Source: Mobula birostris
Taxonomy: Eukaryota
Direction: 5' to 3'
Assembly: GCF_030028105.1 (NCBI RefSeq)
Contig: NC_092402.1
Span: forward strand, 33,650,843-33,714,842
Length of the DNA stretch: 64,000 bases
In this document: positions 3,966-58,680 of the stretch, piece by piece
Layout: each line of letters opens with the position of its first letter
How positions within the stretch are numbered: the stretch's first letter is position 1
Translations under genes and position numbers: made by a program
Notes under the pieces: generated by a model
Told to the model about the DNA's origin: nothing
Database searches by the model: none
What the model saw: the letters and a program-made list of their open reading frames with translations, nothing else

Positions 3966-4007
3966 AGGTACTTCCACATTCTTCCAAAATTTACTACCAT
4001 TTATATG

Positions 4008-4262
4008 TAGGCATCCGTTAGTCTCATGAGACCATGGATTTGAGCCTTGGAAGGTTTCCAGGGCGCAGGCCTGGGCAAGGTTGTATGGAAAACCGGTAGT
4101 TGCCCATGCTGCAAGTCTCCCTTCTCTACGCCACTGATGTTGTCCAAGAGAAGGGCCCTAGGGCCGATACAGCTTGGCACCGGTGTTGTCGCAGAGCAAT
4201 GTGTGGTTAAGTGCCTTGCTCAAGGACACAACACGCTGCCTCAGCTGAGGTTCGAACTAGCT
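4008..4262 (-). mobile_element. tRNA-derived SINE, CORE-like central motif
   Basis: Minus strand has B-box-like gttcgaacc followed by gtgtccttgagcaaggcacttaacc; GC-rich body distinct from flanks. Confidence 0.6.
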
Positions 4263-4394
4263 ACCACTTACTGTATATTAATACAGAGGATTCAGGTTAC
4301 AGTAATTGGCAATGTTCCCTCTAAGGTGTGTGTTCGTGCGTGCACACACATTTTTTTTGCTACCAGCGCATAAAGGAATTAAGGAATTTAAACT

Positions 4395-4917
4395 GCAAGC
4401 AAGCAAGTTTATTTGTATAGTGCTTTTCAAACCCAAGGCAGTTCAAAGTGCTTTACGTAGAACAAGGTATAAAAATCGAACATCAAATTTCAGACAATAT
4501 ATAAGAGAATAAAATCACACAAAAATAGATATGATAAATAGAAGTTACAGTGTAGAAGATCCTAATAAAAAGCTACAATGAAAAGAAAAGTTTTAAGTCT
4601 TGATTTGAAAGACCTTAAAGTGGGAGCAGATTTCAGATCCTCTGGAAGGCTGTTCCAGATACATGGAACATAGTAACTAAAAGCAGCTTCACTTTGTTTA
4701 ATTTTGACCCTGGGGATGGTAAGCAGACCCGCCCCAGACGACCTGAGAGCTCAGGAAGGTTCATAATGCAGCAAGAGATCGGAGATGTATTTTGGCCCTA
4801 GACCATTCATTCAGAGCTTTATAAACCAGTAATAATATTTTAAGTTCAATGCTCTGATGGAATGAAAGTCAGTGTAGCGATCTGAGAACTGGAGTGATAT
4901 GTTCAACTTTCTTGGTC
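4395..4917 (-). mobile_element. L2 LINE 3' fragment inserted in the hAT element
   Basis: Minus strand TKKVEHITPVLRSLH*L...IELKILLLVYKAL..GLGAKYISDLL is the typical L2 ORF2 C-terminus; (cttg)n tail at about 4395-4407. Confidence 0.8.
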
Positions 4918-5119
4918 TACACACAGACTGAACACAAAAGGTTGTCACCCTCTACCTCATTGGCACGTTAAGAATATTTCACAATCGTACACAATCACAT
5001 TTCCTTTTCCGGTTTCTGATGTGGATGTTGTCGACAATGTGGAGCTTGCAGTGATTTGTCTGCAGATTTTAGAACTGGCTTAGTTATGCTGTTTTTATTG
5101 AAGAAATTATTGATTCACT

Positions 5120-5581
5120 ATGTTGAATTCCAAAGAAGCAGAGGGCGTGAAGCGCAAATGAACTGCAAGTTCATTTGAAGCGGAATAGCTTAATGAAACA
5201 GTAGAAACTGCTACACTGAAAGCTCAAGAGGTCAGGAACACGCAGCTACGAGAAATATTTATGTACAATACCGAAACGGGTGTTACCTGCATGTATTGTC
5301 ACAATGCAAAAGTTGCTGGAGAATTTGTAAGTGGGAAGAAGTGGAGTGATATTTGGAAACTTGACTTTTTAAAGTGTCACTTAGCAAGCAAATCACATGT
5401 GGACAGTGTGCAAAAGCTCCAGAGAGAAAGCCCTTCATTACCTGCTATTGGCTTGCTTCATATGTTTACTGAATGTGCAGATGAACGAGAGCAAAAGCGA
5501 TCAAACCCAGAGGAGTTCAAAGTTCTTATTGACAGTGTTTTGCTAGCCATTAAAATGAATACCTCGATATATAATATTTAG
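5120..5581 (+). pseudogene. hAT transposase N-terminus with TTF/C17orf113-type zinc finger
   Basis: ATG at 5120 is in frame with ORF 5261-5581 through two stops; CMYC...F..G...WKLDFLKCHLASKSH is a CxxC/HxxSxxH finger; no catalytic domain before the right TIR. Confidence 0.7.
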
Positions 5582-6069
5582 TGAGCACATGTTATCACTG
5601 TACAGCACAAGACTTTTGCGCACACCAGTCATTACAAATTAGAGGGAACGTTATTAATTGGGCCATCAATTAATTGAGACAGCTGCTTATTTGGAACAGC
5701 ATTTAAAGAACAAAGGCTAATCAAGGAAATAGCTGTGATTCCCTTCATTTGTTTGGGACACTATGAGATCTGCAAACTGCTAAGGGCCAGACCAAAGGCA
5801 TTCAAGCGACCAAGAAAAATAGAAGAGGTCCAAGTATGATCTCCAGAAAGCCATCTCATGGGCGAAGTGGCAATTCTGGACTAAACATGAATCAGTGAAG
5901 GATGCTCAACAGTTGTGGCAGGGCTTGAATGATATCACCTCTTATAAGTGAAATCAAAGTTCGAAGTAAATTTATTATCAAAGTACATATATGTCACTAT
6001 ATACAATATGAGATTCATTTTCTTGTGGGCACACTCAATAAATCCATAATAGAATAGTAACCATAATAG

Positions 6070-7762
6070 TAAACATGAGAAAATCTGCAGATGCTGGAAA
6101 TCTAAAGCAACAAAATGCTGGAGGAACTCAGCAGCTCAGGCAGCATCTATGAAAATGAATAAACAGTCGATGTTTCAGGCTGAAACCGTTCTTCAGGACT
6201 GAAAAGAAAGGGGGACGATGCCAGAATAAAAAGGTGGGGGGACAGGAAGGAGGCTAGCTGGAAGGTGATAGGTGAAACCAGGTGGGTGGGAAAGGTCAAG
6301 GACTGGAGAAGATGGAATCTGATAGGAGACTAGAGTGGACAACAGGAGAAAGGGGAAGAAGGAGGGGACCCGGAGGAAGCAATAGGCAGGTAAGAAGAGG
6401 TAAAAGGTCAGAGTAGTGAATAGAGGAAGTGGGGGGAGAAATTGTTTGCTGTAAGAAGAAATCGATATTCAAGCCATCAGGTTGGAGGCTATCCAGACAG
6501 AATATAAAGTGTTGCTCCTCCACCCTGAGGGTGGCCTCATCTTGGCAGAGGAGGAGGTCATGGCCAACACGTTGGAATGAGAACTAAAATGTTTGGCCGT
6601 CGGGAAGTCCTGCTTGTGGTGGATGGAGTGGAGGTGCTCAATGAAGCAGTCCTCCAATTTATGATGGGTCTCACCAATGTAGAGGAGGCTGCATCGGGAG
6701 AACCGGATACAATAGATGACTCCGGCAGGTTTGCAGGTGAAGTGTTGCCTCACCTGGAAGGACTGCCTGAGGTCCTGAATGGAGGTGAAGGAGGAGGTGT
6801 ATGGGCAGGTGTAGCACTTTGGCTGCTTGCAGGGAGGGATAAATGCCAGGAGGGATGAATGGATAAAGGAATTGCAGGGGGAGCGACCCCTGCAGAAAGT
6901 GGAAGTGGAGAGAAGGTAAAGATATGTTCAGTGTAGGATCCCCTTGGAGATGGCAGAAGTTGTGGAGGATAATGTGTTGGATGTGGAGGCTGATGGGATG
7001 GTAGGTAAGGACACGAGGAGGTCTGTCACTGTTAAGGTGGTGGGAAGATGGGGTGAGCACAGATGTTCAGGAAATGGTGGAGATGTGAGTGAGGGAAGCA
7101 TCAATAGAGGAGGGAGGGAAATCCCATTCCTTAAAGAAAGAAGGAATCTTTGATGTCCTGGAATGGAAAGCTGCATCCTGGGAACAGATGTGGTGGAGAT
7201 GAAGAAACTGAGAAAAGGGAATAACATTTTTACAGGAGGTAGGGTGGGAAGAGGTATAGTCAAGAGAACAGTGGGAATCAGTTGGTTTATAAGAGATGTC
7301 AGTTAATAGTTTATCTCCAGAGATGGAAACAGAAAGATCAAGAAAGAGGAGAGGGTGTCAGAGATGAATCAAGTGAATTTAAGGGCAGGGTAGAAGCTAG
7401 AGGCAAAGTTGGTAAAATTGATGGTTGTATGAAACAGCACCAAAACAGTCATCATGTCGCAGAGGAAGAGTTGGGGAGTATTACTGGGGAAGGCTTCCGA
7501 TATGAACTATTCTACCTACCTAACTAAAAGGCAGGTATAGCTGGGGCCCATGCAAGTGGCCATGCCTACCCCTTGAGTTTGGAGAAAGTGGGAGGAACCG
7601 AAGGAAGAATTGTTCAGGGTGAGGACAGGTTCAGCCAGATGGAGGAGTGTGGTGATAGGAGGGAATTGGTTGGTTGTTTTGTCAAGAAAGAAGTGAAGAG
7701 CTTTAAGGCCTTCTAGATGGAGGATAGAAGTATATAGGGATTGAACATCCATGGTGAAAATG
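6070..7762 (-). mobile_element. Penelope-like element (Neptune-like), 5'-truncated: RT, GIY-YIG endonuclease and pLTR
   Basis: TMDVQSLYTSI..LNNSSF..FLQTQGVGMATCMGPSY (Penelope RT) and VIYCIRFSRCSLLYIGET (GIY-YIG); frameshifted; 10-bp TSD accataatag (6060-6069) / accataagag (7763-7772). Confidence 0.9.
6164..6201 (-). ncRNA. Minimal type I hammerhead ribozyme motif in the Penelope pLTR, partly mutated
   Basis: CAGUC-CUGAAGA-ACGGUUUCAGCCU-GAAA-CAUC-GACUG; stem I is perfect and core boxes are present, but stems II and III carry substitutions. Confidence 0.65.
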
Positions 7763-9166
7763 ACCATAAGAGAATCAATGAAAGGCTGCACCAGTGTGCA
7801 AAAGACATCAAACTGGGTAAATACAAAAAGAAAGAAATAATAATAATAATAATAAATAAACAAACAATAAATATGGAGAACATGAGATGAAGAGTCCTTG
7901 AAAGTGAGTTTGTGGGAACATTACAATGATGGAGATAGTGATATTGAGTGAAATTATCCCCTTTGGTTCAAGAGCCTGATGGTTGAGGGGTGATAACTGC
8001 TCTTGAACCTGGTGGTGTGAGTTCTGAGAGTCCTGTACTTTCGTCCTGATGATAGCAGCAAGAAGAGAGTATGGCCTGGGTGCTGGGAGTCCCTGATGAT
8101 GGATGTTGCTTTCCTTCAACAATGTTTCATGTAGATGGGCTCAATGGTGGGGAGGGATTTATCTGCAATAGACTGGGCCATATCCACTACTTCTGTAGGA
8201 TTTTCCATTCAAGTGCATTGGTGTTTCCATACCAGGCTGTGATGCAATCAGTCAATATACTCTCCACTACACATCTATAGTAGTTTTAGATCACATATTG
8301 AATCTACACAAACACCAAAGGAAACAGAGGCATTGCCATGTTTTCTTCATATTTGCACTTATGTGCTGGGGCCCAAGACAGGTCCTCTGAAATAATAACA
8401 CCAAAGAATTTAAAGTTTCTGACTCTCTCTACCTCTGATCCTTCAATGAGGACTGGCTTATGGACCTTTGGTTTCGTCCTCCTGAATTTATTAATCAGCT
8501 CCTTGGTCTTGCTGACATTGAGTGAGAGGTTGTTGTTGTGGCACCACTCAGCCAGATTTTCAATCTCCCTCTTACATGCTGATTCATCACCACCTTTGAT
8601 TTGACCAATGGTAGTGGTGTTGTCAGCAAACTTGAATATGGCTTTGGAGCTGTGCTTAGGCACACAGTCATAAGTATAAAGCAGGGGGCCATGCACATAG
8701 CCTTGTGGTGCACCTGTGCTGATGGAGATTGTGGAGGAAATGTTGTTGCCAATCCAATCTGACTGGGATCTGCAAGTGAGGAAACTGAGGATCCAATTGA
8801 ACATGGAGGTATTGAGTCCAAGGTTGTGGTGCTTATTGATTAGTTTTGAGAGGATGATGCTATTGAATGTTGAACTGTGGTCAATAAAGAGCATCCTGAT
8901 ATATGCGTCTTTGCTGTCGAGATGTTCCAGGGTTGAGTATAGAACCAATGAGATGGCATCTGCTGCTGACCTGTTGTGACAGTAGGCATGTTGGAGCTGA
9001 TCCAAGTCACTTCGCAGGCAGGAGCTGATATCTTTCATCACCAACCTCTCGAAACACTACATCATTGTGGTTGTAAATGCTACTGAACAATAGTCACTGA
9101 GGCAGGTTACCACGTTCTTCTTAGGCACTGGTATAGTTGAAGCCTGTTAGAAGCTGGTGAAGCGAG

Positions 9167-9794: not shown

Positions 9795-11497
9795 CGACAT
9801 CGGTGACAACAGGGCTTCACTTCCAGATGGGCTCAGTGCCTTCTATGCTCACTTTGACCGTCAATGGAGGAACGTAGGTATGGAGGAATGGAGGAATGGA
9901 GGAACCATCACGAAGTCCCACAGCCCACAGTGACCCTGTGATTTCAGTCTCTGAAGGCAAAGTGAGAGCATCCTTCAGGATGGTGGTCTCGTGGAAAGCT
10001 TCTGGCCCAGATGGGGTACCTGGCCAAGTACTAAAGGCCTGTGCTGATCAACTGGCTGGAGTGTTCACTAAGATCTTTAACCTCTCGCTTCAGCAGTCTG
10101 AGGTACCCATCTGCTTCCAGCAGGCTTCAATTATACTGGTGCCTAAGAAGAACGTGGTAACCTGTTGTCCAGTAACACTTATATCCACAGTGATGAAGTG
10201 CTTTGAGAGGTCAGTGATGAAAAATATCAACTCCTGCCTGAGAAGAGACTTAGATCCGTTCCAATTTGCCTACCAGCGCAATATGTCCGCAGCAGTTGCC
10301 ATCTCATTGGCTCTTCATTCAAACCTGGAACATCTAGACAGCAAAAATGCATATATCAGGATGCTCTTTATCAGCATTCAATACTATCATCCCCTCAAAA
10401 CTAATCAATAAGCTTCAAGACCTTGGCTTCAATACCTCCATGTGCAATGGATCCTGGATTTCCTCACTTGTAGACCCCAGTCAGTTCAGATGGGCAGCAA
10501 CATCTCCTCCATGATCTCCATCAGCACAGGTGCACCACAAGGCTGTGTGCTTAGCCCCCTGCTCTATTCACTTTATCCTTATCACTGTGTGGCTAAGCAC
10601 AGCCCCAATGCCATATTTAAGTTTGCTGACAACACCACAGTTGTTGGTCAAATCAAAGGTGGTGATAAATCAGCATATAGGAGGGAGATTGAAAACGTGG
10701 CTGAGTGGTGCCACAACAACACCCCAGTACTCAATGTCAGCAAGACCAAGGAGTTGAACTAGGCCTTGTTGGGGGAATCAGTGGTAGAGAGGGTCAGCAA
10801 CTTTAAATTCCTCGGTGTTATCATTTCAGAGGACCTGTCCTGGGTCCAGCACGTAAGTGCCATTGCAAAAAAAGCACGGCAGTGCCTCTATTCCTTAGAG
10901 GTATGTAAAGATTCAGCATGACATCTAAACCTTTGACAAACCTCTATAGATGTGTAGTGGAGAGTATATTAACTGGTTGCGTCACGCCCTGGTATAGAAA
11001 CATCAATGCCCTTGAATGGAAAGTCCTACCAAAAGTAGTAGATATGGACCTGTCTATCTTAAGTAAATCCCTGCTTATTATTGAGAACATCTACATGAAA
11101 TGCTGTTGCAGGAAAGCAGCATCCATCATCAAGGACCCCCACCACCCAGGACATGCTGTCTTCTCACTACTGCCATCAGGAAGAAGGTACAGTAGCCTCA
11201 GGACTCACACTGCCAGGTTCAGAAACAGTTATTACCCTTTACACTTTAAGCTCTTGAACCAGAGGGGATAACTTCACTCAGCTTCATTTGCCCCATCACT
11301 GATCTGTTCCCACAACCTGTGGACCCACTTTCAAGGACTCTCCATCTTATGTAGTGCTTATTTATTTACTTATCTATCTATCTATCAATATATTTATTTA
11401 TTTATTGTTGCACAGTTTGTTGTCTTTTGCACACTGGTTGCTGACCATGTTCGGTGCAGTCTTTCATTGATTCCATTAGGGCTATTGGATTTAGATT

Positions 11498-16074: not shown

Positions 16075-16290
16075 AAAAAGAGAAAATGCTCGAAATACTC
16101 AGCAGGTCAGGCACCATGCGTGAAGCAGAAAACAGAGTTAATGCTTCACACCAAAGACCTATCATTAAAACTGATGAAGGATCACCAATCTGAAACCTCA
16201 ACTCTGTTTCTCTCTCACAGATGCTTTATGAATTGCTGAGCATTGCCATCATTTTCTCCATTTGTCTCAGGTACCAGCATTTAAACTTCT
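16075..16290. mobile_element. Penelope pLTR fold-back element with decayed hammerhead core
   Basis: aaaatgctcgaaatactcagcagg... inverted against ...tgctgagcattgccatcatttt; ctgatgaagg..tgaaac at 16171-16196. Confidence 0.65.
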
Positions 16291-18184: not shown

Positions 18185-19350
18185 GAGCAAAAGGTTTTGT
18201 GATGAGGAAGTTAAGAATCAAATTGGCATTGACTTTTGACCCTGAAGGTTGTTGGCGGTATGGATAGTGGATGGTCTCATGTTATAGGAAGATGTTGAGC
18301 AGTTGATCAGTTGGGCATTAAAATGGTAGATGGAATTTAATTCTGATAAGTGCATCTTGGGAGGTCTTATGAGAATAGGAATATTTACCCTGAGGGCCAG
18401 GGCCCTAGTGAGTATTGAGGAACAAAGGGACGTGGCTTAGATCCATAGATCCCTGAAAGTGCAGCAGCAGTAGATGGAGTGGTAAAGAAAGGCATACAGG
18501 ATATTTGCCTCTATTAACTAGGGCATAGAATATGAGAACAGGAATGGCACGGTACATACAAAATGCTGGAGGAACTCAGCAGGCCAGGCAGCATCTATGG
18601 AAAGGAATAAACAGTCAATATTTCAGGCCAAGACCCTCCATCATAACTCTCCTGATGAAGGGTTTGGCCTGAAACATCAACTGGCTATTCCTTTCCATAG
18701 AAGCTGCCTGGCCCGTTGAGTTCCTACAACATTTTATATGTGTTACTCTGGATTTCTAGCATCTGCTGAATCTCTTGTGTTTAAGCTATGGTACAGCTTC
18801 CTAAAACATTGGTGATATCATCTTGAATATAGTGTGTAGTTTTGGTTACCTTATTATGGAAAAGATGTGATTGGTCTTGAAAGTGTGCAAAGGGTGATAG
18901 TCGCCAGCATATTGCCTTGGATGGAGTGTCTCACTTATGAAGAAAGACTTGATCAAGTGGGTTAATTTTCCTTGAAACAAAGGTTGGGGTGGTGGTTGGA
19001 GACCTGTTGAAGGTGTACAAAGGTATGATGGGCACAGGTAGGGTAGATAGTGGAAAACTTTATAGCAAAGGTATCTATGAGTAGAGGGTATGGGTTTAAA
19101 GTAAGGAGTAGGGGGTTTAGAGGAGAGATATGGAAGATTTTTTTTCATCCAAAGAGAGATTGGAGTTTGCAATGCACTACCTAAGAGGGTGGTGGAGGCA
19201 GGGACTTTTATTACATTTAAGAAGGATCGAGGTGATTATTGAACCAACAAGGTCTAAAAGGCTAGAAATCAAATGTTGCTAAATGGGATTAGAATAGTTG
19301 AGTACTTGATGGTCAGGAGAGACAAGGCCAGTTCCCATGCTGGATGACTC
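18185..19350 (+). mobile_element. Degraded CR1 LINE 3' portion
   Basis: Homologous to CR1 RT C-terminus and 3' UTR (aaatggtagatggaatttaat..., ggcatagaatatgaga...). Confidence 0.7.
18555..18783. mobile_element. Penelope pLTR fold-back element with two opposed hammerhead motifs
   Basis: About 90-bp inverted arms; minus-strand motif at 18612-18643, plus-strand ctgatgaagggtttggcctgaaacatc at 18652-18678; approximate TSD gcacggtaca/ctatggtaca. Confidence 0.8.
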
Positions 19351-20039: not shown

Positions 20040-23000
20040 CTTCGTGCAAGGGGTTTGGAAGGGGCGGAATTTGTTAAAGTGCATCCAGGTAGGTTTCTTA
20101 AATCAATATGTGGATGATCCAATGAGAGGAGGGGCCGTACCGGACCTGGTTCTGGGCAAAAAGCCTGGCCATGTGACTGACCTTGTAGTGGATGAACAGT
20201 AAGGAAACAGTGAACATAATTCATTGACTTTCAGGATAACTATAGATAAGGATGGGTATGGTCTTTGTGGGAGAGTTTTAAATTGGAGTAGGGAAAATTA
20301 TGAGGGCATTAGGCAGGAACGAAGGAGAGTTAATTTGGAACACCTTTTTTCTGGCAAGTCCACACCAACATGTGGAGGGTGTTTAAAGATCAATTGCTCA
20401 GAGTACAGGAAGGGTATGTTCTTGTTAGAAGGAAGGATGGGGATGGAAAGATAAGAGCACTTTGGATGTCCAGGGAGGTGATGAATTTGGTCAAGAAGAG
20501 AAAGGAAAAGTATGTAAAGCTTTGGAAGTTAGGGTCAAACAAAGCACATGAGGAGTATAAGGAAGCCAAAAAAGAACTAAGGAAGGGAGTTTGGAAAGCC
20601 AGGAGGGGCCATGAAAAGTCCTTGGCAAATAGGATTAAGCTGAATCCCAAGGCATTCTATACGTACATCAAGAGCAAGAGGATAACTAGGGAGAGGGTGA
20701 GACCACTCAAGGATAGAGGGGGCAACATTTGTTTGGATGCGGAGAATGTGAGTTAAGTACTTGTTGAGTACTTTGCATCTGTATTTATCATGAAAAAGGA
20801 TATGGAGGAGCAGGAGATCAGTGCTGAGTGTATAAATACATTAGGATGTTTAGAGGTCAAGGAGGAAGAAGTGTTGGACCTCCTTCTGAGTATTAAGGTG
20901 GATGCCCCAAGGGCCTGATGGAATTTACCGCAGGTTATTGAAGGAGACAAGATTGTTAGGCCCTTGACTAGTATCTTCGTGTTCGCTCTAGTCACAAGCG
21001 TGGTCCTGGAGCACAGGCAAGCAGCCTCTATTTAGGAAGAAAACAAGTGAAAATCCTGGGAACTCTTGATTCCTGAGAACTAGAGTCTCACGTCAGCTGT
21101 AAGGAAATTGCTGAAGAAAATTCTTAGGGATAGGATATATATGAGTATTTGGAAACTTATGGCCAAATTAGGGAGAGCCAGCATGGCTTTGTGCAGGGCA
21201 GGCTGTATCTTATCAACTTGATTGAGTTTTTTGACAAGTTGATGAGACAGATTGATGAGGGTAGGGCAGAGAATGTTGTCTACATGGATTTTCGTAAGGC
21301 GTTTGACAAATCCACTAATAGAAAGGTTGTGAGTGGTGGTAAAAATTTTCTGAGGTGTATATATTTCAATGCTAGGAGTATTGCGGGGAAGGCAGATGAG
21401 TTGAGGGTGTGGATTGACACGTGGAATTATGACGTTGTAGCAATTAGTGAAACTTGGCTACAGGAGGGGCAGGACTGGCAGCTTAATATTCCTGGGTTCC
21501 GATGTTTCAGATGTGATCGAGGCAGGGGAATGAAAGATGGGGGAGTAGCATTGCTTGTTAGGGAAAATATTACAGCAGTGCTCAGGCAGGACAGATTAGA
21601 GGGCTTGTCTACTGAGTCCTTGTGGGTGGAGCTGAGAAACAGGAAAGGTATGGCCACATTAGTGGGATTGGATTACAGACCACCCAATAGTCAACGAGAC
21701 TTGGAAGAGCAAATCTGCAGAGAGATAGCAGGCAACTGCAGGAAACATAAAGTTGTGGTAGTAGGGGATTTTAATTTTCCATACATTGATTGGGACTCCC
21801 ATACTGTTAGGGGTCTAGATAGTTTAGAGTTTGTAAAATGTGTTCAGGAAAGTTTTCTAAATCAATATATAGAGGGACCAACTAGAGGGGATGCAATATT
21901 GGATCTCCTGTTAGGAAACGAGTTAGGACAAGTGACAGAAGTCTGTGTAGGGGAGCACTTTGGTTTCAGTGATCATAACACCATTAGTTTCAACTTGATC
22001 ATGGACAAGGATAGATCTGGTCCTAGGGTTGAGGTTCTTAACTGGAAGATGGCCAAATTTGAAGAAATGAGAAAAGATCTAAAAAGCGTGGATTGGGACA
22101 GGTTGTTCTCTGGCATGGATGTGATCAGTAGGTGGGAAGCCTTCAAAGCAGAAATTTTGAGAGTGCAGAATTTGTATGTTCCTGTAAGGATTAAAGGCAA
22201 GGTGAATAGGAATAAGGAACCTTGGTTCTCAAGGGATATTGCAACTCTGATAAAGAAGAAGAGGGAGTTGTATGACGTGTATAGGAAGCAGGGAGTAAAT
22301 AAGGTGCTTGAGGAGTATAAGAAGTGAAAGAAAATACTTAAGAAAGAAATCAAGAGGGCTAAAAGAAGACATGAGGTTGCCTTGGCAGTCAAAGTGAAGG
22401 ATAATCCAAAGAGCTTTTATAGGTATATTAAGAGCGAAAGGACTGTAAGGGATAAAATTGGTCCTCTTGAAGATTAGAGTGGTCGGCTATGTGTGGAACC
22501 AAAGGAAATGGGGGAGATCTTAAATAGGTTTTTTGCGTCTGTGTTTACTAAGGAAACTGTCATGAAGTCTATGGAATTAAGGGAAATAAGAGACCATGGA
22601 AACCATACAGATCGAAAAGGAGGAGGTCCTTGCTGTCTTGAGGAAAATTAAAGTGGATAAATCCCCGGGACCTGACAGAGTGTTCCCTCGGACCTTGAAG
22701 GAGACTAGTGTTGAACTTGCAGGGGCCCTGGCTGAAATATTTAAAATGTCGCTGTCCACAGGTGAGGTGCCGGAGGATTGGAGAGTGGCTCATGTTGTTC
22801 CGTTGTTTAAAAAAGGATCGAAAAGTAATCCGGGAAATTATAGGGCAGTAAGTTTAACGTTGGTAGTAGGTAAGTTATTGGAGGGAGTACTAAGAGACAG
22901 AATCTACAAGCATTTGGATAGATAGGGGCTTATTAGGGAGAGTCAACATGGCTTTGTGCCTGGTAGGTCATGTTTGACCAATCTATTGGAGTTTTTCGAG

Positions 23001-25370
23001 GAGGTTACCAGGAAAGTGGATGAAGGGAAGGCAGTGGATATTGTCTACATGGACTTCAGTAAGGCCTTTGACAAGGTCCCGCATGGGAGGTTAGTTAGGA
23101 AAATTCATTCGCTAGGTATACATGGAGAGGTTGTAAATTGGATTAGACATTGGCTCGATGGAAGGAGCCAGAGAGTGGTGGTAGAGAATTGCTTCTCTGA
23201 GTGGAGGCCTGTGACTAGTGGTGTGCCACAGGGATCAGTGCTGGGTCCATTGTTATTTGTCATCTATATCAATGATCTGGATGATAATGTGGTAAATTGG
23301 ATCAGCAAGTTTGCTGATGATACAAAGATTGGAGGTGTGGTAGACAGTGAGGAAGGTTTTCAGAGCCTGCAGAGGGACTTGGACCAGCTGGAAAAATGGG
23401 CTGAAAAATGGCAGATGGAGTTTAATACAGACAGGTGTGAGGTATTGCACGTTGCAAGGACAAACCAACGTAGAACATACAGGGTTAATGGTATGGCACT
23501 GAGGAGTGCAGTGGAACAGAGGGATCTGGGAATACAGATAAAAAATTCCCTAAAAGTGGTGTCACAGGTAGATAGGGTCGTAAAGAGAGCTTTTGGTACT
23601 TTGGCCTTTATTAATCAAAGTATTGAGTATAAGAGCTGGAATGTTATGATGAGGTTGTATAAGGCATTGGTGAGGCCGAATCTGGAGTATTGTGTTCAGT
23701 TTTGGTCACCAAATTACAGGAAGGATATAAATAAGGTTGAAAGAGTGCAGACAAGGTTTACAAGGATGTTGCCGGGACTTGAGAAACTCAGTTACAGAGA
23801 AAGGTTGAATAGGTTGAGACTTTATTCCCTGGAGCGTAGAAGAATGAGGGGAGATTTGATAGAGGTATATAAAATTATGATGGGTATAGATAGAGTGAAT
23901 GCAAGCAGACTTTTTCCACTGAGGCAAGGGGAGAAAAAAACCAGAGGACATGGGTTTAGGGTGAGGGGGGAAAAGTTTAAAGGGAACATTAGAGGGGGCT
24001 TCTTCACACAGAGAGTGGTGGGAGTATGGAATGAGCTGCCAGACGAGGTGGTAAATGCGGGTTGTTTTTTTAACATTTAAGAATAAATTGGACAGATACA
24101 TGGATGGGAGGTGTATGGAGGGATATGGTCCATGTGCAGGTCAGTGGGACTAGGCAGAAAATGGTTCGGCACAGCCAAGAAGGGCCAAAAGGCCTGTTTC
24201 TGTGCTGTAGTTTCTATGGTTTCTATGGTTAAAGTCCCTTATGGGAGGCTAATCCAGAAGACTAAGATTTATGGGGTCTGTGGCGAATTGTCTGGATTCA
24301 CAATTGGCTTGCGCACAGAAGACAGGGTAGTCGTTGAAGGAACTTATTTGAGCTGGAGGTCTGTAATTAATGGAGTTCTGCAGGGATCTGTGCTGTGACC
24401 TCTACTGATTGTGATGTAGAAAAATGACCTGGATGAAAATGTAGAAGAGCAAGTTAGTAAATTTGCGCATGATACCAAGATTGGTGGAGTTGTGAATAGT
24501 GTAGAAACCTGGCAAAGAATACAGTGCAATATAGATCAGTTGCAGATATAGGCTGAGAAATGGCAGTTGGAGTTTAACCCAGATAAATGTGAGCTGTTAC
24601 ACCTCAGCAGGGCAAATGCAAGGAGACAGAGTACTGTTAAGGGCAAGATCTTTAACAGTGTTGCTGAGCAGAGAAATCTAGCTGCTTGAAAGAGAAGACA
24701 CAGGTCGATGGGGTGGTTAAGAAGGCTTATGGAATGCTTGCTTTTATCAGTCAAGGCATTGAGTTCAAAGGCCAAGGGTTATGTTGTAACTTTATAAAGC
24801 TCTGGTTAGGCCAGATCTGGGGTATTACATATAGTTCTGGTTGCCTCACTATAGGATGGATGTTGAGGATTTGGAGAGGGTGTAGAAGATGTTTACCAGG
24901 ATGCTGCCTGGTTTAGAGGGCATATGTATCATGAGAGACTGGATAAAATTGGGTTGTTTTCTCTGGGGCGGCAGAGGCTGAGAGGAGATCTGATAGAGAT
25001 TTATAAGATTATGAGAGGCATAGATAGAGTAGACAGGGAGTATCTGTTTCCCAGGGTTGAAATGTTCAATACTATTGGGCATGTATTACGGGTGAGAGGG
25101 GGTAGGTTCAAAGGGGATGTGAGGGGTAAGTTTTTTACTCAGAGAGTGGTTGGTCCCCAGCATCTGCTGCCTGGTATGGTGGAAGAGGCAATAAACTAGA
25201 GATCTTTAAGAGACATGTAGATAGGCACATAAATGTGAGGAAAATGGAGGGATATGGACATTGTGTAGGTAGGAGGTGTTTTTGATTTCCTCTTTAGCTG
25301 GTTCAGCACAATATGATGGCTGAATGACCTGTTTCTATGCTGTACTGTTCCAAGTTCTGTGTTCTATATG
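20040..25370 (+). mobile_element. Older CR1 LINE (outer), split at 21310/24231
   Basis: FLNQYVDDPMRGGAVPDLVLG, NPKAFYTYIKSKR and YMDFRKAFDK resume as KVPYGRLIQK at 24231; RT C-terminus and 3' tail run to about 25370; many stops. Confidence 0.9.
21311..24230 (+). mobile_element. Young CR1 LINE with nearly complete ORF2 (APE endonuclease and RT)
   Basis: LRCIYFNARSI, SETWL, VGDFNFP, SDHN (APE); KSPGPD, QGSVLGPLLF, KFADD (RT); stop at 22325, frameshift near 22590, stop at 22923; (ttctatggt)n tail ends 24230. Confidence 0.95.
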
Positions 25371-32774: not shown

Positions 32775-35700
32775 CATGTTGTCCAATACAGTTCCTTTGA
32801 AACTGCTGGAGTTTTGGGAGTAAAATGCCATCGCTTGGTTCATACAAACTAAGGCCCTGTTCGCTCTGTGAGAAATCTCTGCCAACGACACCAAATTCTG
32901 CTACGTGGTAGTATTACTCAGCAATTCCATGGTACGCAAGAGTGGTGAGTCTGCTTGAACACACGCCTGAACACAATAAATACTGATCGCTGAAAACTCA
33001 CCTTTTACTCTTAGACTATTGGAGTCTGAGCGTGCAAATAGTTGCTGTCCTTACCCTGTCTCTGTGATGCTAGGCTAATGGACCACATGATGTCTCTCCT
33101 GGGAAATCAAATTGTTTTATTTTTAAAGAACTCTTCATGCTGCAAATGCCTGATCAAATTCGTATAGCCCTTGCTAATGCATCTGTGAATGACTATAGGG
33201 AGCTTGCTAAGATGCCTAATAGTCTCCCCTCAGCTAGGCAGTGGTGCATCATTCCTCCTACTTTCTCTGCTTCAATAAGCCTGATCAACAAGGCCCCCAA
33301 CACAAGAAGGCCCATGGCTGTGAAGCCAACAAAGATCAGGCCTGTGTTTTCACCACACTCGCTTTGGTATGAACGCTGGGAAATGCCAACTGGCTTGCAG
33401 CTTCAGCAGTGACAACGCATTGGGACATCAGAGATCAGTGAACACTGTGGGTTCCAGCTGCCAGGGTCATTTACTGTTCATTACAGACACCCTTTCAGGG
33501 CAACATTTCCTGTGTGACATGGGTGCTCAAGCGAATGTGCTGCCGTCATCACCCATTGATGAGAACGCAAAGAGCAATGAAACCTCACTGGAGGTCACCA
33601 ACGGCAGCAGGATCCAGACTTATGGGACATGATGGGTGACACTCTGCTTCAGTAGATAATGTTACACATGGGACTTCCTCCTGGCTAAATTGGCTAGACC
33701 TCTGCTTGGTACAAATTTCCTGTGTGCCCAAGGACTGTTGGTCGATCTTAAGAACTGCCGGCTTGTGGACGTCAAGGACCTTGGGGTGTTACCCTGCTCC
33801 CCCAGTAAGTTCCCCACAACGACTCTGTCAAGCACATGCAGCACCACATGTGAGTTTACTCAACTACTGGGCAAATTCTCAAACCTCACCAAGCCCACAT
33901 TCTCCACTACAGCCTCAAAACATGGGGTTGTGTACGTCATTTCTATAATTGGCCAACTAGTCCATGACCACGCATGTAGACTGGACCCAGAAAAGTTGGC
34001 AACCATGAAGGTTGAGTTTACTAACATTGAAAGACTTGACATTGTACATCAGTTGAATAGTCTCTGGGCTTCACCCCTCCATATGGTCCCTAATTCCGAT
34101 GGTGGTTGCCACTCATGTGGTGATTACCAATGCTTTAACAAGGCCACCACTTCTGATCATTAGTCGGTCCCAGACATCCGAGACTTTTGGCATGTTTAGA
34201 TGGAAAGTTATTTTTTTTCAAACTTGATCTAGTTAGGGGCTACCGTCAAGTGCCCGTGTGCTAGGAGGACATTCACAAAACAGCTGTGATAACCCCGCTT
34301 GGCCTCTTTGAGTTTCTGCGCATGCCATTTGGGCTGAAAAATGCAGCACAGACTTTCCAGTGGCTGATGGACTCTGTATTAAAGACTTACATTTTCTTTT
34401 TGTTTACCTGAATGATATACCAGTCACTAGTGTATCCAAATCTGAACATGTATCTCATCTCTGCACACTTTTTGAGCGCTTAAGCCAACACAGGTTGATT
34501 ATTAATGCTGCTAAATGCCCGTTTGGATTGTCAGCCATTGACTTTCCCAGCCATCGCATTTCCACAGAAGGTGCAAAACCCTCCCATCAAAAGTAACTGC
34601 TATTATGGATTTCCCACCACCCTGCACCACTAAAAAAACGAAAGGAGTTTTTAGCTTTGGTAAATTTCTATCACCACTTTATTCCGTGAGTTGCCGAACT
34701 TATGCTCCCCCTGTATAATGTGCTTAAAGGCAATACTCATGTGCTTGACTGGTCAGCAGATATGAGCAGGGCATTTAATGATACCAAACAGGCTCTTTCC
34801 AAAGTGACCCTACTGGCACACCCGCTCCTCATTGTACCCATTGCCATTACTACTGACACTTCAGACTATGCTATCAGTGCTGAGCATGAACAGTTGGTCA
34901 GAGGCGTGTGGCAGCTTCCCGCCTTCTTTGGTCGGCAGCTCCATCCCCCCAAAAGGAAGTACAGCATGTTTGACTGTGAGCTTCTTGGTCTCTATCTGGC
35001 TGTTCACCATTTTCATTTTCTTCTGGAGTGTCACCATTTCACAGCATTCGTTGGCCACAAACCCCTTGTGCACATGATGGCCAAAATATCAGAACCTTGG
35101 TCTGCACGGCAACAATGCCACATGGCCTACATATCCGCGGTCACAACTGAAATACAACATGTCACGGGAAAAAATAATGCTGTGACTGATTGCCTATCAT
35201 GGCCTGCCATTGAGGCTGTACACATTGGTGTTGACTATGCCAGCATGACAGCCGACCAAGTTACTGACCCAGAGATCCAGGCTTACTAGACATCAGTCAT
35301 GGGCCTGTGGATGGGGGAGGTGGGGTTTCTCTCCTGTGCGATGTCTCAACCGGTCACCCTCATTTTATCATGTCCACAAACTGGAGATGGACTGTTTTCA
35401 ACTCCATCCAAGCTGGAAGGCTTCAGAGAAATTGGTTGCACTAAAGTTTGTGTGGTGGCACGGCCTTAGAAAGGACGTGGGTGATTGGACTGCAGCCTGT
35501 GTGGAGTGGCAGCGGGCAAAAAACAACCGGCACGTTCATGCGCCGTTGGCACCTTTTGAGGTCCCTGAGCAATGGTTTGACCATGTCAATATGGACCTTG
35601 TTGGTCCTCTTCCTCTCTCCCGCAGCTTCACACACCTTCTTACCATGATGAACTGTACAACCAGGTGACCAGAGGTCATCCCTCTAGCATCGACGACGGC

Positions 35701-36478
35701 CACAGACATGGCTCGGGTGTTCATCAGCACCTGGGTTGCTCTGTGTGGTACCCCATCTGATATTTCCTCTGACCAAAGTCCCCAATTCATATCAGACCTC
35801 TGGGCTTCATGATACGCTGTGGTGTGATGTAGCCTTGTCGTTAGGCTACATCACACCATAGCATATCACCCGCAGTCCAATGGCCTATGTGAGCGGTTTC
35901 ACCTCTCCTTAAAGGCTGCTCTGAGGGCTTCCTTGACAGATGAGTGTTGGCATGATCATCTCCCATGGGTCCTGCTGGGCTCAGAACAGCTCCAAAACAG
36001 GAGCTGCAGTCATCCGCAGCTGAGTTGGTGTATGGGCAACCATTATGAGTACAAGGTGATTTCTTTCCTGACGCCACAATCACCTGGTTGGCCTCTCAAT
36101 GGCGTTCCACCTTCCTTAGTAACTTCAGTTCCTTCTCATCTATTCCAACCTCCCATCATAGCATACAGTACTCTGGTGTTCCTGTTGACCTACATTCCTC
36201 CTCATTTGTTCTCGTCCACCATGATGCAAACCAACATCCCCTTAGGACCCTTACGATGGCCTGTTCTGTGTTTTGGAACAGAGAAAAAGACTTATCTCAT
36301 AGATAAGAGGTGTAAACCTGAATTAATTTTGGTAGATCACCTTAAACCGGCCCACCAAGAGTTGGAGTATTCTGCTGCCATGCCCCTGGTGTCACAACAT
36401 GACCATGAGTGTGTCAACGCACATCTGGACAAGCCTAAGGCACCTGCGGTTCCTCCACCCGTGGAACATAGGACCTGA
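32775..36478 (+). pseudogene. Gypsy gag-pol, fragmented
   Basis: Gag LKLLEFWE*NAIAWF; protease FLCDMGAQANVLP; RT WASPLHMVPNSDGG, VYLNDI; RNase H TTDTSDYAISA; integrase FDHVNMDLVGPLP, AYHPQSNGLCERFH; many stops and frameshifts. Confidence 0.9.
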
Positions 36479-47552: not shown

Positions 47553-47685
47553 AAACACAAGCAATGTGGAAATCCAGAGCAACACACACAAAATGCTGGA
47601 GGAAATCAGTAAGTTGACCATTTATTCATTTCCATACAATGCTGCCCGACTTGCTGAGATCCTCCAACATTTTAATTGTGTTGCT
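47553..47685. mobile_element. Penelope pLTR fold-back remnant
   Basis: agcaacacacacaaaatgctggaggaaatcag inverted against ctgagatcctccaacattttaattgtgttgct. Confidence 0.7.
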
Positions 47686-51404: not shown

Positions 51405-52740
51405 TTCAGAATCAGAATCAGAATCAGGTTTATTATCACCGGCACGTAATGTGAAATTTGTGAACTTAGCAGCAGCAGTTCAATGCAATACATAATATAG
51501 AAGAGAGAAAAAAATCAATCATTCAATCAATCAGTTACAGTATATGCATATTGAATAGATTAAAAATCACACAAAAAAACAGAAATAATAAGTATTTAAA
51601 AAGTGAGGTAATGTTCATGGATTCAATGTCCATTTAGGAATCGGATGGGAGAGGGGAAGAAGCTGTTCCTGAATCACTGAGTGTGTGCTTTCAGGCTTCT
51701 GTACCTCCTACTTGATGGTAACAGTGACAAAAGGGCATCCCCTGGGTGCTGGAGGTCCTTAATAATGCACTCTGTCTTTCTGAGACACCGCACCTTCCAG
51801 ATGTCCTGGGTACTTTGTAGGCTAGTGCAAAGCCTACAATGGAGCAGATGAAGATTACAATCCTCTGCAACATCTTTCAGTCCTGTGCAGTAGCTACCTA
51901 CCCCCCACCTCCCAATACCAGACAGTGATGCAGCCTGTCAGAATGCTCTTCATGGTATATCTATAGAGGTTTTTTGAGTGTTTTTGTTGACATGCCAAAT
52001 CTCTTCAAACTCCCAATGAAGTATAGACACTGTCTTGCCTTCTTTATAGTTGCATCAATATGTTGGGACCAGGTTGGGTCCTCAGAGATCTTGACACTCA
52101 GGAGCTTAAAACTGCTCACCCTCTCCACTTCTGATCCCTCTATGAGGATTGGTATGTGTTCCTTCGTCTTACCCTTCCTGAAGTCCACAATCAGCTCTTT
52201 TGTCTTACTGACATTGAATGTAAGATTGTTGCTGCAACACCACTCCACTAGTTGGTATATCTTGCTCCTGTATGCCCTCTCATCTCCATCTGAGATTCTA
52301 CTAACAATGGTTGTATCATTAGCAAATTTATAGGTGGTGTTTGAGCTATGCCTAGCCACACAGTCATGGGTATAGAGAGAGTAGAGCAGTGGGCTAAGTG
52401 CACCGGTGTTGATCGTCAGCAAGGAGGAGATATTGTTCTATTTATTATAAATTATTATAAATTACTATAATTGCACATTGCACATTTAGACAGAGATGTA
52501 ATGTAAAGATTTTTACTCCTCATGTATGTGAAGGATGTAAAAAATAAAGTCAATTCAGTTCAATTCAATACTATCACCAATCTGCACAGATAGTGGTCTT
52601 CCAGTTAGGAAGTCAAGGATCTAGTTGCAGAGGGAGGAACAGAGACCCAGGTTCTATAACTTATCAATCAGGATTGTCGGAATGATGGTGTTAAATGCTG
52701 AGCTATAGTCGATGAACAGCATCCTGACATAGGTTTTTGT
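51405..52740 (-). mobile_element. Rex1/Babar LINE 3' portion, with a second LINE tail inserted at about 52437-52570
   Basis: ORF 51961-52422 [31 protein letters not shown]; (ctgatt)n tail. Confidence 0.9.
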
Positions 52741-53209
52741 GGCTTTGCACATAAGCGCAGCTTCTAGGCAAATAAATTTTTAATAAAATCATCAAAATTA
52801 GAGTCTGACCTTGCTCAGAGTTCTAAATGGTGAAGCATTATGGTTAATTATTAAAATACCAAAAACATATGGTAGATATTAATTTTCCAATAGGTTTTTT
52901 GTACATATGTCTAGATGCACAGAATGGTCTGCCTAATTATTATTTGGAATCTGACATATGGATTATTTCAACTCAAATTGAATGAAATTTTAATCAGATC
53001 ATCAATATTCTGATGCATGTTTATTCTACAATGAATTGGTCCACCCAGGGACCATTATATGAATGTGAATTTGTAATGAATTCAAAGAAAATGATCCAAG
53101 AATGCAGAAGATGGATTACATTTTTGTATTGTTTGATATTTTTGGAAGAGTTTTTAATATTTCAATTGCAGGTTTATAAAAACTTTTAGAACTAGTTGGT
53201 TAAAAAGGA

Positions 53210-53391
53210 AAACAACAGGAATTCTGCAGGTGCTGGAAATTCAAGCAACACACATAAAAGTTGCTGGTGAACGCAGCGGGCCAGGCAGCATCTCTAGGAA
53301 GAGGACGAAGGGTCTCGGCCTGAAACGTCGACTGCACCTCTTCCTAGAGATGCTGCCTGGCCTGCTGCGTTCACCAGCAACTTTTATGTGT
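53210..53391. mobile_element. Young Penelope pLTR fold-back insertion with TSD
   Basis: 59-bp near-perfect inverted arms 53246-53304 / 53337-53395; gttggttaaaaagga duplicated at 53195-53209 and 53392-53406. Confidence 0.9.
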
Positions 53392-53529
53392 GTTGGTTAA
53401 AAAGGACATTGGAACTGATTGTAACTTTTCAAATAGATCTAAGCAAAAAAAAATTCATTTCATACACAAGAGGCCTCCGTGGAAAGTAGACAATAACATG
53501 AAAACTCACAGAAAGATATAAAATGTGAT

Positions 53530-54130
53530 TTATTTTATATTATTGTTATATGCACAAGTACATGTACACACAGGTACAATGCAAAACTTACAACAACTTT
53601 AAAGGCACATAGCATCAAATATGCAATATTCACAAAGAAAAACATATATATAAATTATACTCAATTTTTACAAGAAAGAACACAATTAGAACAAAAGAAG
53701 TCTATTGTGGTGCAAAGTGGGCAAAATTGGTCATGTACAGCATTGTGATGTTGAGGTAGTGGTAAGGGTTGAGCAGGTTGGTTCAAGAACCGAATAGTTG
53801 AAGGGAAGTTGCACACATCAAAGTTGCTGGTGAATGCAGCAGGCCAGGCAGCATCTCTAGGAAGAGGTACAGTCGACGTTTCGGGCCGAGACCCTTCGTC
53901 AGGACTAACTGAAGGAAGAGTTAGTAAGAGATTTGAAAGTGGGAGGGGGAGGGGGAGATCCAAAATGATAGGAGAAGACAGGAGGGGGAGGGATGGAGCC
54001 AAGAGCTGGACAGGTGATTGGCAAAAGGGATATGAGAGGATCATGGGCTGTTCTTACACCTGTTTGTGTTTGGCTTCAGGCTTCTGTACCTTGCCCCAAT
54101 GGTAGCTGTGAAAAGATGGCATGGCACAGA
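53530..54130 (-). mobile_element. Rex1-type 3' UTR fragment interrupted by a Penelope 3' end (53811-54046, minus)
   Basis: gaagggaag|insert|gctgttctt continuity; the insert is the same young subfamily as 53210-53391. Confidence 0.75.
53871..53906 (-). ncRNA. Intact minimal type I hammerhead ribozyme
   Basis: AGUC-CUGACGA-A-GGGU(CUCG)GCCC-GAAA-CGUC^GACU: all core nucleotides present, stems I and II paired, palindromic ACGU in place of stem III; predicted cut between 53875 and 53874. Confidence 0.8.
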
Positions 54131-54696
54131 TCGTGAAGGGAAGTGAAGGCTAGTGAAGGTGAAGGGCCTCAATCTGCTGCATCAGGCTACCTAACAGAGA
54201 GAAACTTGGCTTTTAGAATGTGAATGAACTGAAAGATCAACTGTGCTTATAACAACAGTGCTTTTAAAAGACAAGTTGAAGGTTGATGAAATAAACATGA
54301 CAATGACAGGGAAATAAGTGCAAATTAGAGTGGGTGTTTTCAATAGTATAGAAGGGACACCTTCAGAGTAAGGCAGATTGACTAAGGAAGGAAAAAGGAT
54401 AAAAAAAAGAAAAATATGATACTTTAAAGTGGAAAGAATAAAAAAGAAAAAATATGATAATCTAAAATTTAGCTTTTTTAAAATGCTCAACAAAATTTAA
54501 TACACAGGGAATAAGATACTTCACTTGTAATAGTTAGCTTTCAGTGACAGAGAATTTTGTAAACATGTATGACAACAAAGAGATATCAGGTAGTTTGTTG
54601 GATATCAGCTTTAGGACAACTGAGCTCTGTATCTATGTCTCAGCTAGAAAGTTGTCTTACTATGAAGACCACCACTAGCCCATGTTGTTTGGAAGG

Positions 54697-57640: not shown

Positions 57641-58529
57641 ATAATGTAAAGCAACAGGTCTTTAGGAAGTCTTTTTAGTTGATGAAAAAGAGTGAGTAAA
57701 ATCAGCAATGATATGGATAGCAGAATTGCAGCAGTGCTGGTGGTAAAGCTGAAGGAGATGGTAGTGACAAGCTATGGCGGAGCCATACCTGGGTTTGAAA
57801 ACAAACAAAATTCTTTTCTTTTAAGAGAGTTTGCATGGTGGACAATATGGTCAGTGAGCATTGGATAATATGCAACAAGACTTGGGTGACCTCAAGTGCT
57901 TGGGGGTTAGAAAATGTGAGGTTGATAAGGGCTATATTGGAGTAGGCAAATCCAAAGAAAACGAAGGCATGGCCATTCAGTTAAAAAGTGCCATTGCTGT
58001 CAAACATTATCCAGATAATTTGGCTTGAGGTACTTTACTTTGACCTGTTCCATTCTCTCTATCCTTATCTGACATTTTGCTTTTGCTTCCTAATAACATG
58101 TCTCTGATACTCATACAAGGTACTTTGAATTCTCAGGTGACAAACCTTTTGTGGGCTTTGTACTCCGGGATCACTAAAGGTCATGATTGCTTTCTCATTA
58201 TCAGCAATGAACATATGCAGTGAGGAAGCAACTGTCATATGATGATAAGTAAAAGATTTTAATAATTAATGCCTTGTTCTGATTATTAGGCTTGGACCGA
58301 CGAAAATAATGATTTTCTAAGTTTCTACTGGATTTTCCTTTGACAAGACAAAAGTGCCTCTCAAGTTCCTGACTTTTCTTCTGGGAGTTTATCATGCAAG
58401 CCACCTCCTCTTTGCCTTCTGCTTATTTTCTCCACTGTTCAGAAGACATGAACTCTGCTGTAGCAGGCAATTATTCCCCTGTAACTAGCTAGAGGCTAAT
58501 TTACATAAAAGAGCTGCAATAGTGTTGTC

Positions 58530-58680
58530 ATAAACACAAGAAATTCCGCAGTTGCAGGAAATCTTGAGCATTACAAGTAAAATCCTGATGAAGGGTCTCA
58601 AGCTGAACTGTCGACTGTTTATTCCCCGCCATAGATGCTACCTAACTTGCTGAGTTCCTCCAGCATTTTCTGTGTGTTGC
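58530..58680. mobile_element. Penelope pLTR fold-back insertion
   Basis: aaacacaagaaattccgcag.. then cctgatgaagggtctc..gtcgactg..cagcattttctgtgtgttgc; tgcaatagtgt duplicated at 58515 and 58678. Confidence 0.8.

Follow-up and report, generated by a model that had tools for sequence, protein, structure and literature searches.

We found that a 36-nt motif at 53906-53871 on the minus strand of the window (the whole 64-kb stretch of DNA analysed here) is, judged from its letters, a type I hammerhead, in which the core CUGANGA, GAAA and UH stand in order and are accompanied by stems I and II. By every sequence criterion tested it belongs to the minimal hammerheads of Penelope-like elements (PLEs), self-cleavage being a prediction only. 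At this locus, the hammerhead is probably an inert passenger of a young truncated PLE insertion, a reading to which we assign a probability of approx. 80%.

From 53906 to 53871, the minus strand reads letter for letter as in an earlier sequence-only reading of this DNA, and the parts named there were all found in place, namely both conserved boxes, complementary stem I arms, a GUC preceding the cut, an ACGU palindrome as the remnant of stem III (53879-53876) and an extra A between A9 and G10.1 (53895). The layout of the motif is as follows.

53871..53906, minus strand: minimal type I hammerhead motif, with all core positions intact and five CpG kept in 36 nt.
53906-53903 and 53874-53871, by position numbering: 5' arm (AGUC) and 3' arm (GACU) of stem I.
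53896..53902, minus strand: core box C3-A9 (CUGACGA, N7 being C), with the extra A next to it at 53895.
53883..53894, minus strand: stem II, 53894-53891 (GGGU) with 53886-53883 (GCCC), four pairs (three G-C and one U-G) closed by the 4-nt loop CUCG.
53876..53882, minus strand: box G12-A15.1 (GAAA, 53882-53879) followed by CGUC and merging into the self-complementary ACGU (53879-53876), a helix III without a loop.
53875, by position numbering: C17, with the cut predicted between 53875 and 53874.

A fifth pair of stem I (U-G, 53907/53870) is optional, stem II is based on the pair G10.1-C11.1 (G53894-C53883), and the extra A at 53895 was retained in all 10 other aligned copies. With a full descriptor (core boxes, stems I and II of at least four pairs each, palindromic helix III remnant and UH), both strands of the 64-kb window gave a single match, 53906-53871, and only 2 of 500 dinucleotide shuffles contained any match (mean 0.004). 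The two boxes alone were not significant, with 9 matches in the window vs 7.2 expected. Rfam detected no hammerhead at the gathering threshold in the whole window, nor at E<=10 in 53000-54500, which is consistent with the absence of helix III. The 36-mer has a minimum-energy fold other than that of a hammerhead, and its stability is unremarkable (z -0.96).

Cervera and De la Pena 2014 (PMC4209133) list as PLE traits a base between 9 and 10.1, the pair G10.1-C11.1 and a palindromic 15.2-16.2. All three are shared by our motif, together with the type I topology, the missing helix III loop, a helix I of 4-5 bp and the occurrence mostly as single truncated copies, with occasional min-HHR pairs 100-700 bp apart on opposite strands. 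Differences concern helix II, which has 4 bp here vs 7-8 bp in the Schistosoma families, and the apparent copy number, far above the 4,000-9,000 of coelacanth and Xenopus (PMC4209133). The odd features of the motif, i.e. the extra A, the palindromic helix III and the predicted dimer dependence, are published traits of PLE minimal hammerheads. The statement of the sequence-only reading that Penelope pseudo-LTRs carry minimal hammerheads cleaving as dimers was borne out in its class assignment, and the dimer activity is weak according to PMC4209133: a single motif was uncleaved, and dimers and trimers cut weakly, both the dimer model and the assays referring to tandem copies within one RNA. A review (PMC6765202, citing Lunse et al.) also states that PLE hammerheads cut as dimers. 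Low dimer activity is not universal, since one of nine Xenopus dimer elements showed very efficient cleavage (bioRxiv 10.64898/2026.07.22.740005). In PMC8557442, PLE hammerheads are said to have an unknown role. Sharks and skates had no mention in the supplement text of PMC4209133 that was searched, and targeted literature searches covering sharks, elasmobranchs and Chondrichthyes turned up no paper on the family; the supplements of PMC4209133 and of the 2026 preprint may list such motifs.

The motif is carried by a discrete insertion into an older repeat, as deduced from its flanks, which align separately to near-adjacent halves elsewhere in the window, and a second insertion of the same subfamily lies close by.

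53812..54047, minus strand: Penelope-like insertion of 236 nt, 5'-truncated (3' region/pLTR), bearing the motif, with a depth step and loose ends at 53812 and 54047.
53746..53811, plus strand: left half of the older repeat (the pre-insertion target), aligning to 7927-7990 and 51604-51659.
54048..54125, plus strand: right half of the older repeat, aligning to 7997-8075 and 51663-51738.
53210..53391, plus strand: fold-back insertion of the same young subfamily, within a perfect 15-bp duplication (53195-53209 and 53392-53406).

In the two other window copies of the older repeat, its halves are only 4-7 nt apart. The 236-nt insert is non-coding, and no target-site duplication was found around it. 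Contigs of public runs were aligned to 52900-54500 for depth and loose ends. The depth was about 15 on the unique flanks and climbed to millions over 53812-54047 and 53210-53395, both stretches having loose ends at their edges. The summed X1 contig depth over the motif was 6.7 million, a figure that is not a copy number; contig depth suggests that the family has of the order of 10^5 copies per genome. Within the 64-kb window, 12 motif-bearing copies reached E<1e-8, and the profile was built from 11 of them. Among 40 of the 92 variant rows, one variant fell into the motif of the insert, 53883 G>A at about one third of X1 depth, which turns C11.1 into U and is a CpG change. An exact 28-nt pattern had no match in metagenome contigs or in viral contigs.

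The affiliation of the insert was traced through another copy in the window.

6071..7776, minus strand: longer, decayed, 5'-truncated PLE copy of a related subfamily, with the C-terminal half of the reverse transcriptase (RT), a CX4CX2C linker, GIY-YIG and the 3' region.

This copy has a decayed hammerhead at 6200-6165, about 230 nt past its broken reading frame. The frame matched proteins P0001-P0004 (from Hypanus and Mobula by source names; 4 hits out of 51 candidates), by which the host would probably be a ray, and in tblastn full-length proteins of 816-927 aa were matched over RT, thumb and endonuclease. RVT_1 and, at the C terminus, GIY-YIG were matched in all six full-length relatives scanned, at E values of 2e-9 to 2e-3 that mostly fell under the Pfam cut-offs, and the GIY-YIG of the 6071-7776 copy itself reached E 0.1 only. 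As a linker of the CX4CX2C type marks the Neptune and Nematis clades (PMC8557442), the RT, linker and GIY-YIG place this copy and its relatives, by sequence features, with the EN+ PLEs of Neptune/Nematis type. The insert and the 6071-7776 copy are homologous over the motif and over the flank downstream of it, where none of 500 shuffles reached either score, and the similarity of the pyrimidine-rich region upstream of the motif was not significant (75/500 shuffles). Because of the latter, the direct link of the motif's subfamily to a reading frame rests on a hand-read 30-nt consensus: read past the truncation point into the first codons of the insert (Pro, stop), the family consensus reproduces the final residues of P0002 (8 of 8) and of P0004 (9 of 10), two ray proteins with a PLE-type body. 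The insert is, from these comparisons, derived from the terminal repeat of a Penelope-like element. With the EN+ PLEs described by Craig et al. 2021 (PMC8557442), the related copy and the family share the RT followed by a CX2-5CxxC linker and by GIY-YIG at the C terminus, heavy 5' truncation, truncated copies in inverted orientation and a pLTR hammerhead; the insert differs in having no coding sequence. Like the insert, the Anolis Poseidon element PAc (Frangieh et al. 2024, PMC11167929) has copies spanning the uncut site and, in the pLTR of a vertebrate PLE, a hammerhead that comprises stems I and II. It differs in belonging to the Penelope/Poseidon clade and in having been assayed, the family described here having the Neptune/Nematis-type linker.

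Several further observations were made on elements of the window. P0001-P0004, annotated in rays as mucin-2, divergent protein kinase domain 1C or uncharacterized, are largely PLE RT-thumb/GIY-YIG, and these names are probably annotation artefacts. On the minus strand, GIY-YIG occurs in a second fragment, at about 1896-2078, and head-to-head stubs of an older PLE subfamily with unequal arms were seen at 16081-16281, 18554-18784, 47566-47676 and 58529-58680. Inverted LINE-type RT fragments at 7907-9159 and 10108-11318, about 1 kb apart and with arms 78-88% complementary, form a large inverted repeat. The plus strand carries a long decayed LINE at 21134-24077 (AP endonuclease and RT frames of 397 and 384 aa) and decayed pol fragments of an LTR retrotransposon at 33660-36475 (RT, RNase H and integrase zinc-binding domain). 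An open frame of 130 aa at 5189-5578 (plus strand) has spaced Cys/His and no Pfam match; by eye it resembles the zinc-finger region of some DNA-transposon relic.

The insertion is young. Its motif retains all five CpG, its copy is 85/89 identical to the arm of the neighbouring insertion, which itself has a perfect duplication and is absent in organism D (one contig), and 2225 of 24116 X1 contigs over the motif were at least 99% alike. The 10 other aligned copies were changed at 34 of 90 CpG cells vs 21 of 180 other cells, and this CpG-weighted change in the window copies is neutral decay; the 53812-54047 copy is intact likely because it is young and not because the host keeps it. Stem covariation, the lack of which the sequence-only reading had named as a refutation, scored 0.206, a value reached by 248 of 500 shuffles; with 11 decayed window copies as a small set, this is a weak test. 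Loose ends at 53906 and 53869 indicate that other subfamilies share the motif and differ in their flanks, and the catalytic boxes are the same in the young subfamily and in most older copies, with diverged flanks around them. That the motif is common to subfamilies with differing flanks suggests selection in the master elements.

In the parent element, the motif could be a protein-binding or a 5'-boundary structure (a transcript start or an RT stop) more than a nuclease, the master copies being usually copied uncut, an idea that we entertain tentatively and at clearly less than even odds. It draws on the 5' ends of the copies: 8 of the 12 motif-bearing window copies start 22-32 nt upstream of the cut, i.e. 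at the front edge of the motif, the remaining 4 reach further upstream and none starts at the cut, bearing in mind that decay blurs the 5' ends by several nt. At 53904-53906, there is an accumulation of loose ends whose flanks are unlike. The 53812-54047 copy spans the predicted site and hence was itself made from RNA uncut there. Together, these ends fit copying from an uncut RNA that starts just before the motif or makes the RT stall there. A weaker thirteenth window copy starts near -4. From Anolis it is reported that PAc cleavage is dispensable for insertion in vitro, where catalytic mutants inserted normally (PMC11167929). The match of the boxes across young and most older copies, while the flanks diverge, speaks against this idea, as it looks as if catalysis were selected in the masters. 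A boundary role would be one of the parent element, and the copy at this locus could be an inert passenger all the same.

Cleavage in the parent element would likely involve two motif copies within a single tandem-element RNA, which swap strands via the palindromic ACGU and so form helix III, and the strand-swapped dimer would cut after GUC, probably helped by the element's own protein; the dimer step is taken from the literature on the class, and the help by a protein from the Anolis element only. The copy at 53812-54047, a single motif in a 5'-truncated insertion, is likely an inert passenger. If its minus strand is transcribed, the active fold would compete with three predicted structures: a rod formed by GACG and CGUC, a hairpin upstream that covers the stem I arm, and a duplex of 89 bp with the neighbouring insertion. 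As modelled, the 36-mer folds as an inactive rod, in which the core GACG pairs with CGUC, and the probability of an open core is 0.0008. The hairpin lies immediately upstream.

53904..53925, minus strand: predicted 7-bp hairpin, occupying three of the four bases of the stem I 5' arm.

With 19 nt of upstream flank, the predicted probability of stem I was 0.17, and with 54 nt or more it was no higher than 0.01. We considered this hairpin as a conserved switch and ruled that out, as over half of the X1 depth has another base at position 53921.

The third competitor is the neighbouring fold-back insertion, one arm of which (53304-53392) is inverted relative to the motif copy. In a minus-strand transcript, this antisense arm would lie about 420 nt downstream of the motif, and pairing to it was predicted at a probability of about 1.0 for 29 of the 30 positions 53900-53871; some 420 nt are transcribed before the arm emerges, and a transcript starting or ending between both copies would escape the duplex. 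Having neither the 5' arm of stem I nor C3 and U4, and lying on the opposite strand, it is ruled out as a dimer partner in cis. The idea that both copies form one composite element was likewise rejected, since the neighbour is bracketed by a 15-bp duplication of its own, and one organism D contig (depth 3.6) lacks it, the empty site there being joined to the intervening DNA. The neighbour itself is a near-perfect hairpin of about 65 bp (53210-53391; z -17), possibly a source of double-stranded RNA on either strand. Matches to Rfam miRNA precursors at 53262-53380 were below threshold and reflect this long hairpin.

The folding figures are nearest-neighbour equilibria without Mg2+, tertiary contacts, proteins, co-transcriptional kinetics or a known active dimer as control; they consequently lower the odds of activity and do not settle it. 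We consider unlikely the proposal of the sequence-only reading that the copy is catalytically competent in vivo, cut or cutting when paired in trans with RNA from other copies. Its core positions and both stems are intact, and identical or near-identical motifs are so numerous that the genome has partners to offer. However, the 64-kb window holds no intact same-strand partner, and among the 10 other aligned copies the 3' half of the motif is kept only by the opposite-strand neighbour. The complex would be held only by 4-5 pairs of stem I and a 4-nt palindrome, and the active trans dimer was computed at -14.7 kcal/mol, which is 9 kcal/mol above two folded monomers (-23.8) and 17 above the most stable inactive duplex (-32.1). 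In its context, the motif is moreover predicted to be buried by the upstream hairpin and the antisense neighbour. Dimers in cis, too, cut only weakly in vitro (PMC4209133). The Anolis hammerhead cleaves once the ORF protein of the element is added, and only then, which favours the proposal, and no RNA-seq ends are reported at its cut site, which does not (PMC11167929). Given the missing partner, the unfavourable dimer energy and the predicted sequestration, trans competence is not supported for this copy.

Nor was a host gene found at the locus. Pfam searches on the 150 longest of the 158 open frames of at least 75 aa returned transposon domains only, plus one sub-threshold DNA_pack_N, and of 12 candidates from a crude exon finder none could be recognised by eye; short exons could be missed in this way. 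The family sequence as such does occur in RNA data, a point in favour of trans competence: RNA library X20 has three contigs with it (strand and ends not given), one with 0 differences over 54 nt, and X14, guessed to be an RNA run, has 799. X16, guessed to be RNA and probably DNA, did not cover the unique flanks (52900-53169 and 54142-54500), which is not proof of silence.

The view that the insert, instead of a truncated PLE, represents one non-LTR retrozyme unit (a short, tandem, circRNA-forming repeat) is very improbable. Its 236 nt are within the retrozyme size range, pLTR-derived retrozymes are reported for one cartilaginous fish (bioRxiv 10.64898/2026.07.22.740005), and animal non-LTR retrozymes share with it the type I hammerhead and the kinship to pLTRs, being dimer-dependent in amphibians (PMC7229834; bioRxiv 10.64898/2026.07.22.740005). 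Their units stand in tandem, each with a ribozyme, whereas the copy here is solitary and truncated, with no tandem array at the locus and a single intact motif in the window; its 5' end falls into the tail of a PLE reading frame and not at the cut site, and the window copies have varied starts and inverted arms, like PLE insertions. For the 53812-54047 copy, this explanation is already largely refuted. A chance resemblance to a hammerhead, to which the silence of Rfam, the covariation within shuffle range and the ordinary fold stability might point, can practically be dismissed given the rarity of descriptor matches in shuffles, the presence of traits outside the PMC4209133 descriptor (the base after A9, G10.1-C11.1 and the palindromic 15.2-16.2) and the position of the motif within a PLE terminus.

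The lesson of this locus is that an intact core need not mean a working ribozyme: by prediction, an inverted sibling makes double-stranded RNA of it. It is conceivable, and in our opinion quite improbable, that transcripts of some 10^5 near-identical palindromic half-ribozymes, coming from unrelated loci of a ray genome and with the Penelope protein helping, dimerise in trans and cut host pre-mRNAs, inverted neighbours being local off-switches; if true, this would be a transposon-controlled, genome-wide network of RNA cleavage. In itself the motif is of little weight: it adds another, very abundant PLE family, probably of a ray, to a described motif class. Being young and of very high copy number, the family, rather than the 53812-54047 copy, is good material for asking whether PLE hammerheads cut in vivo.
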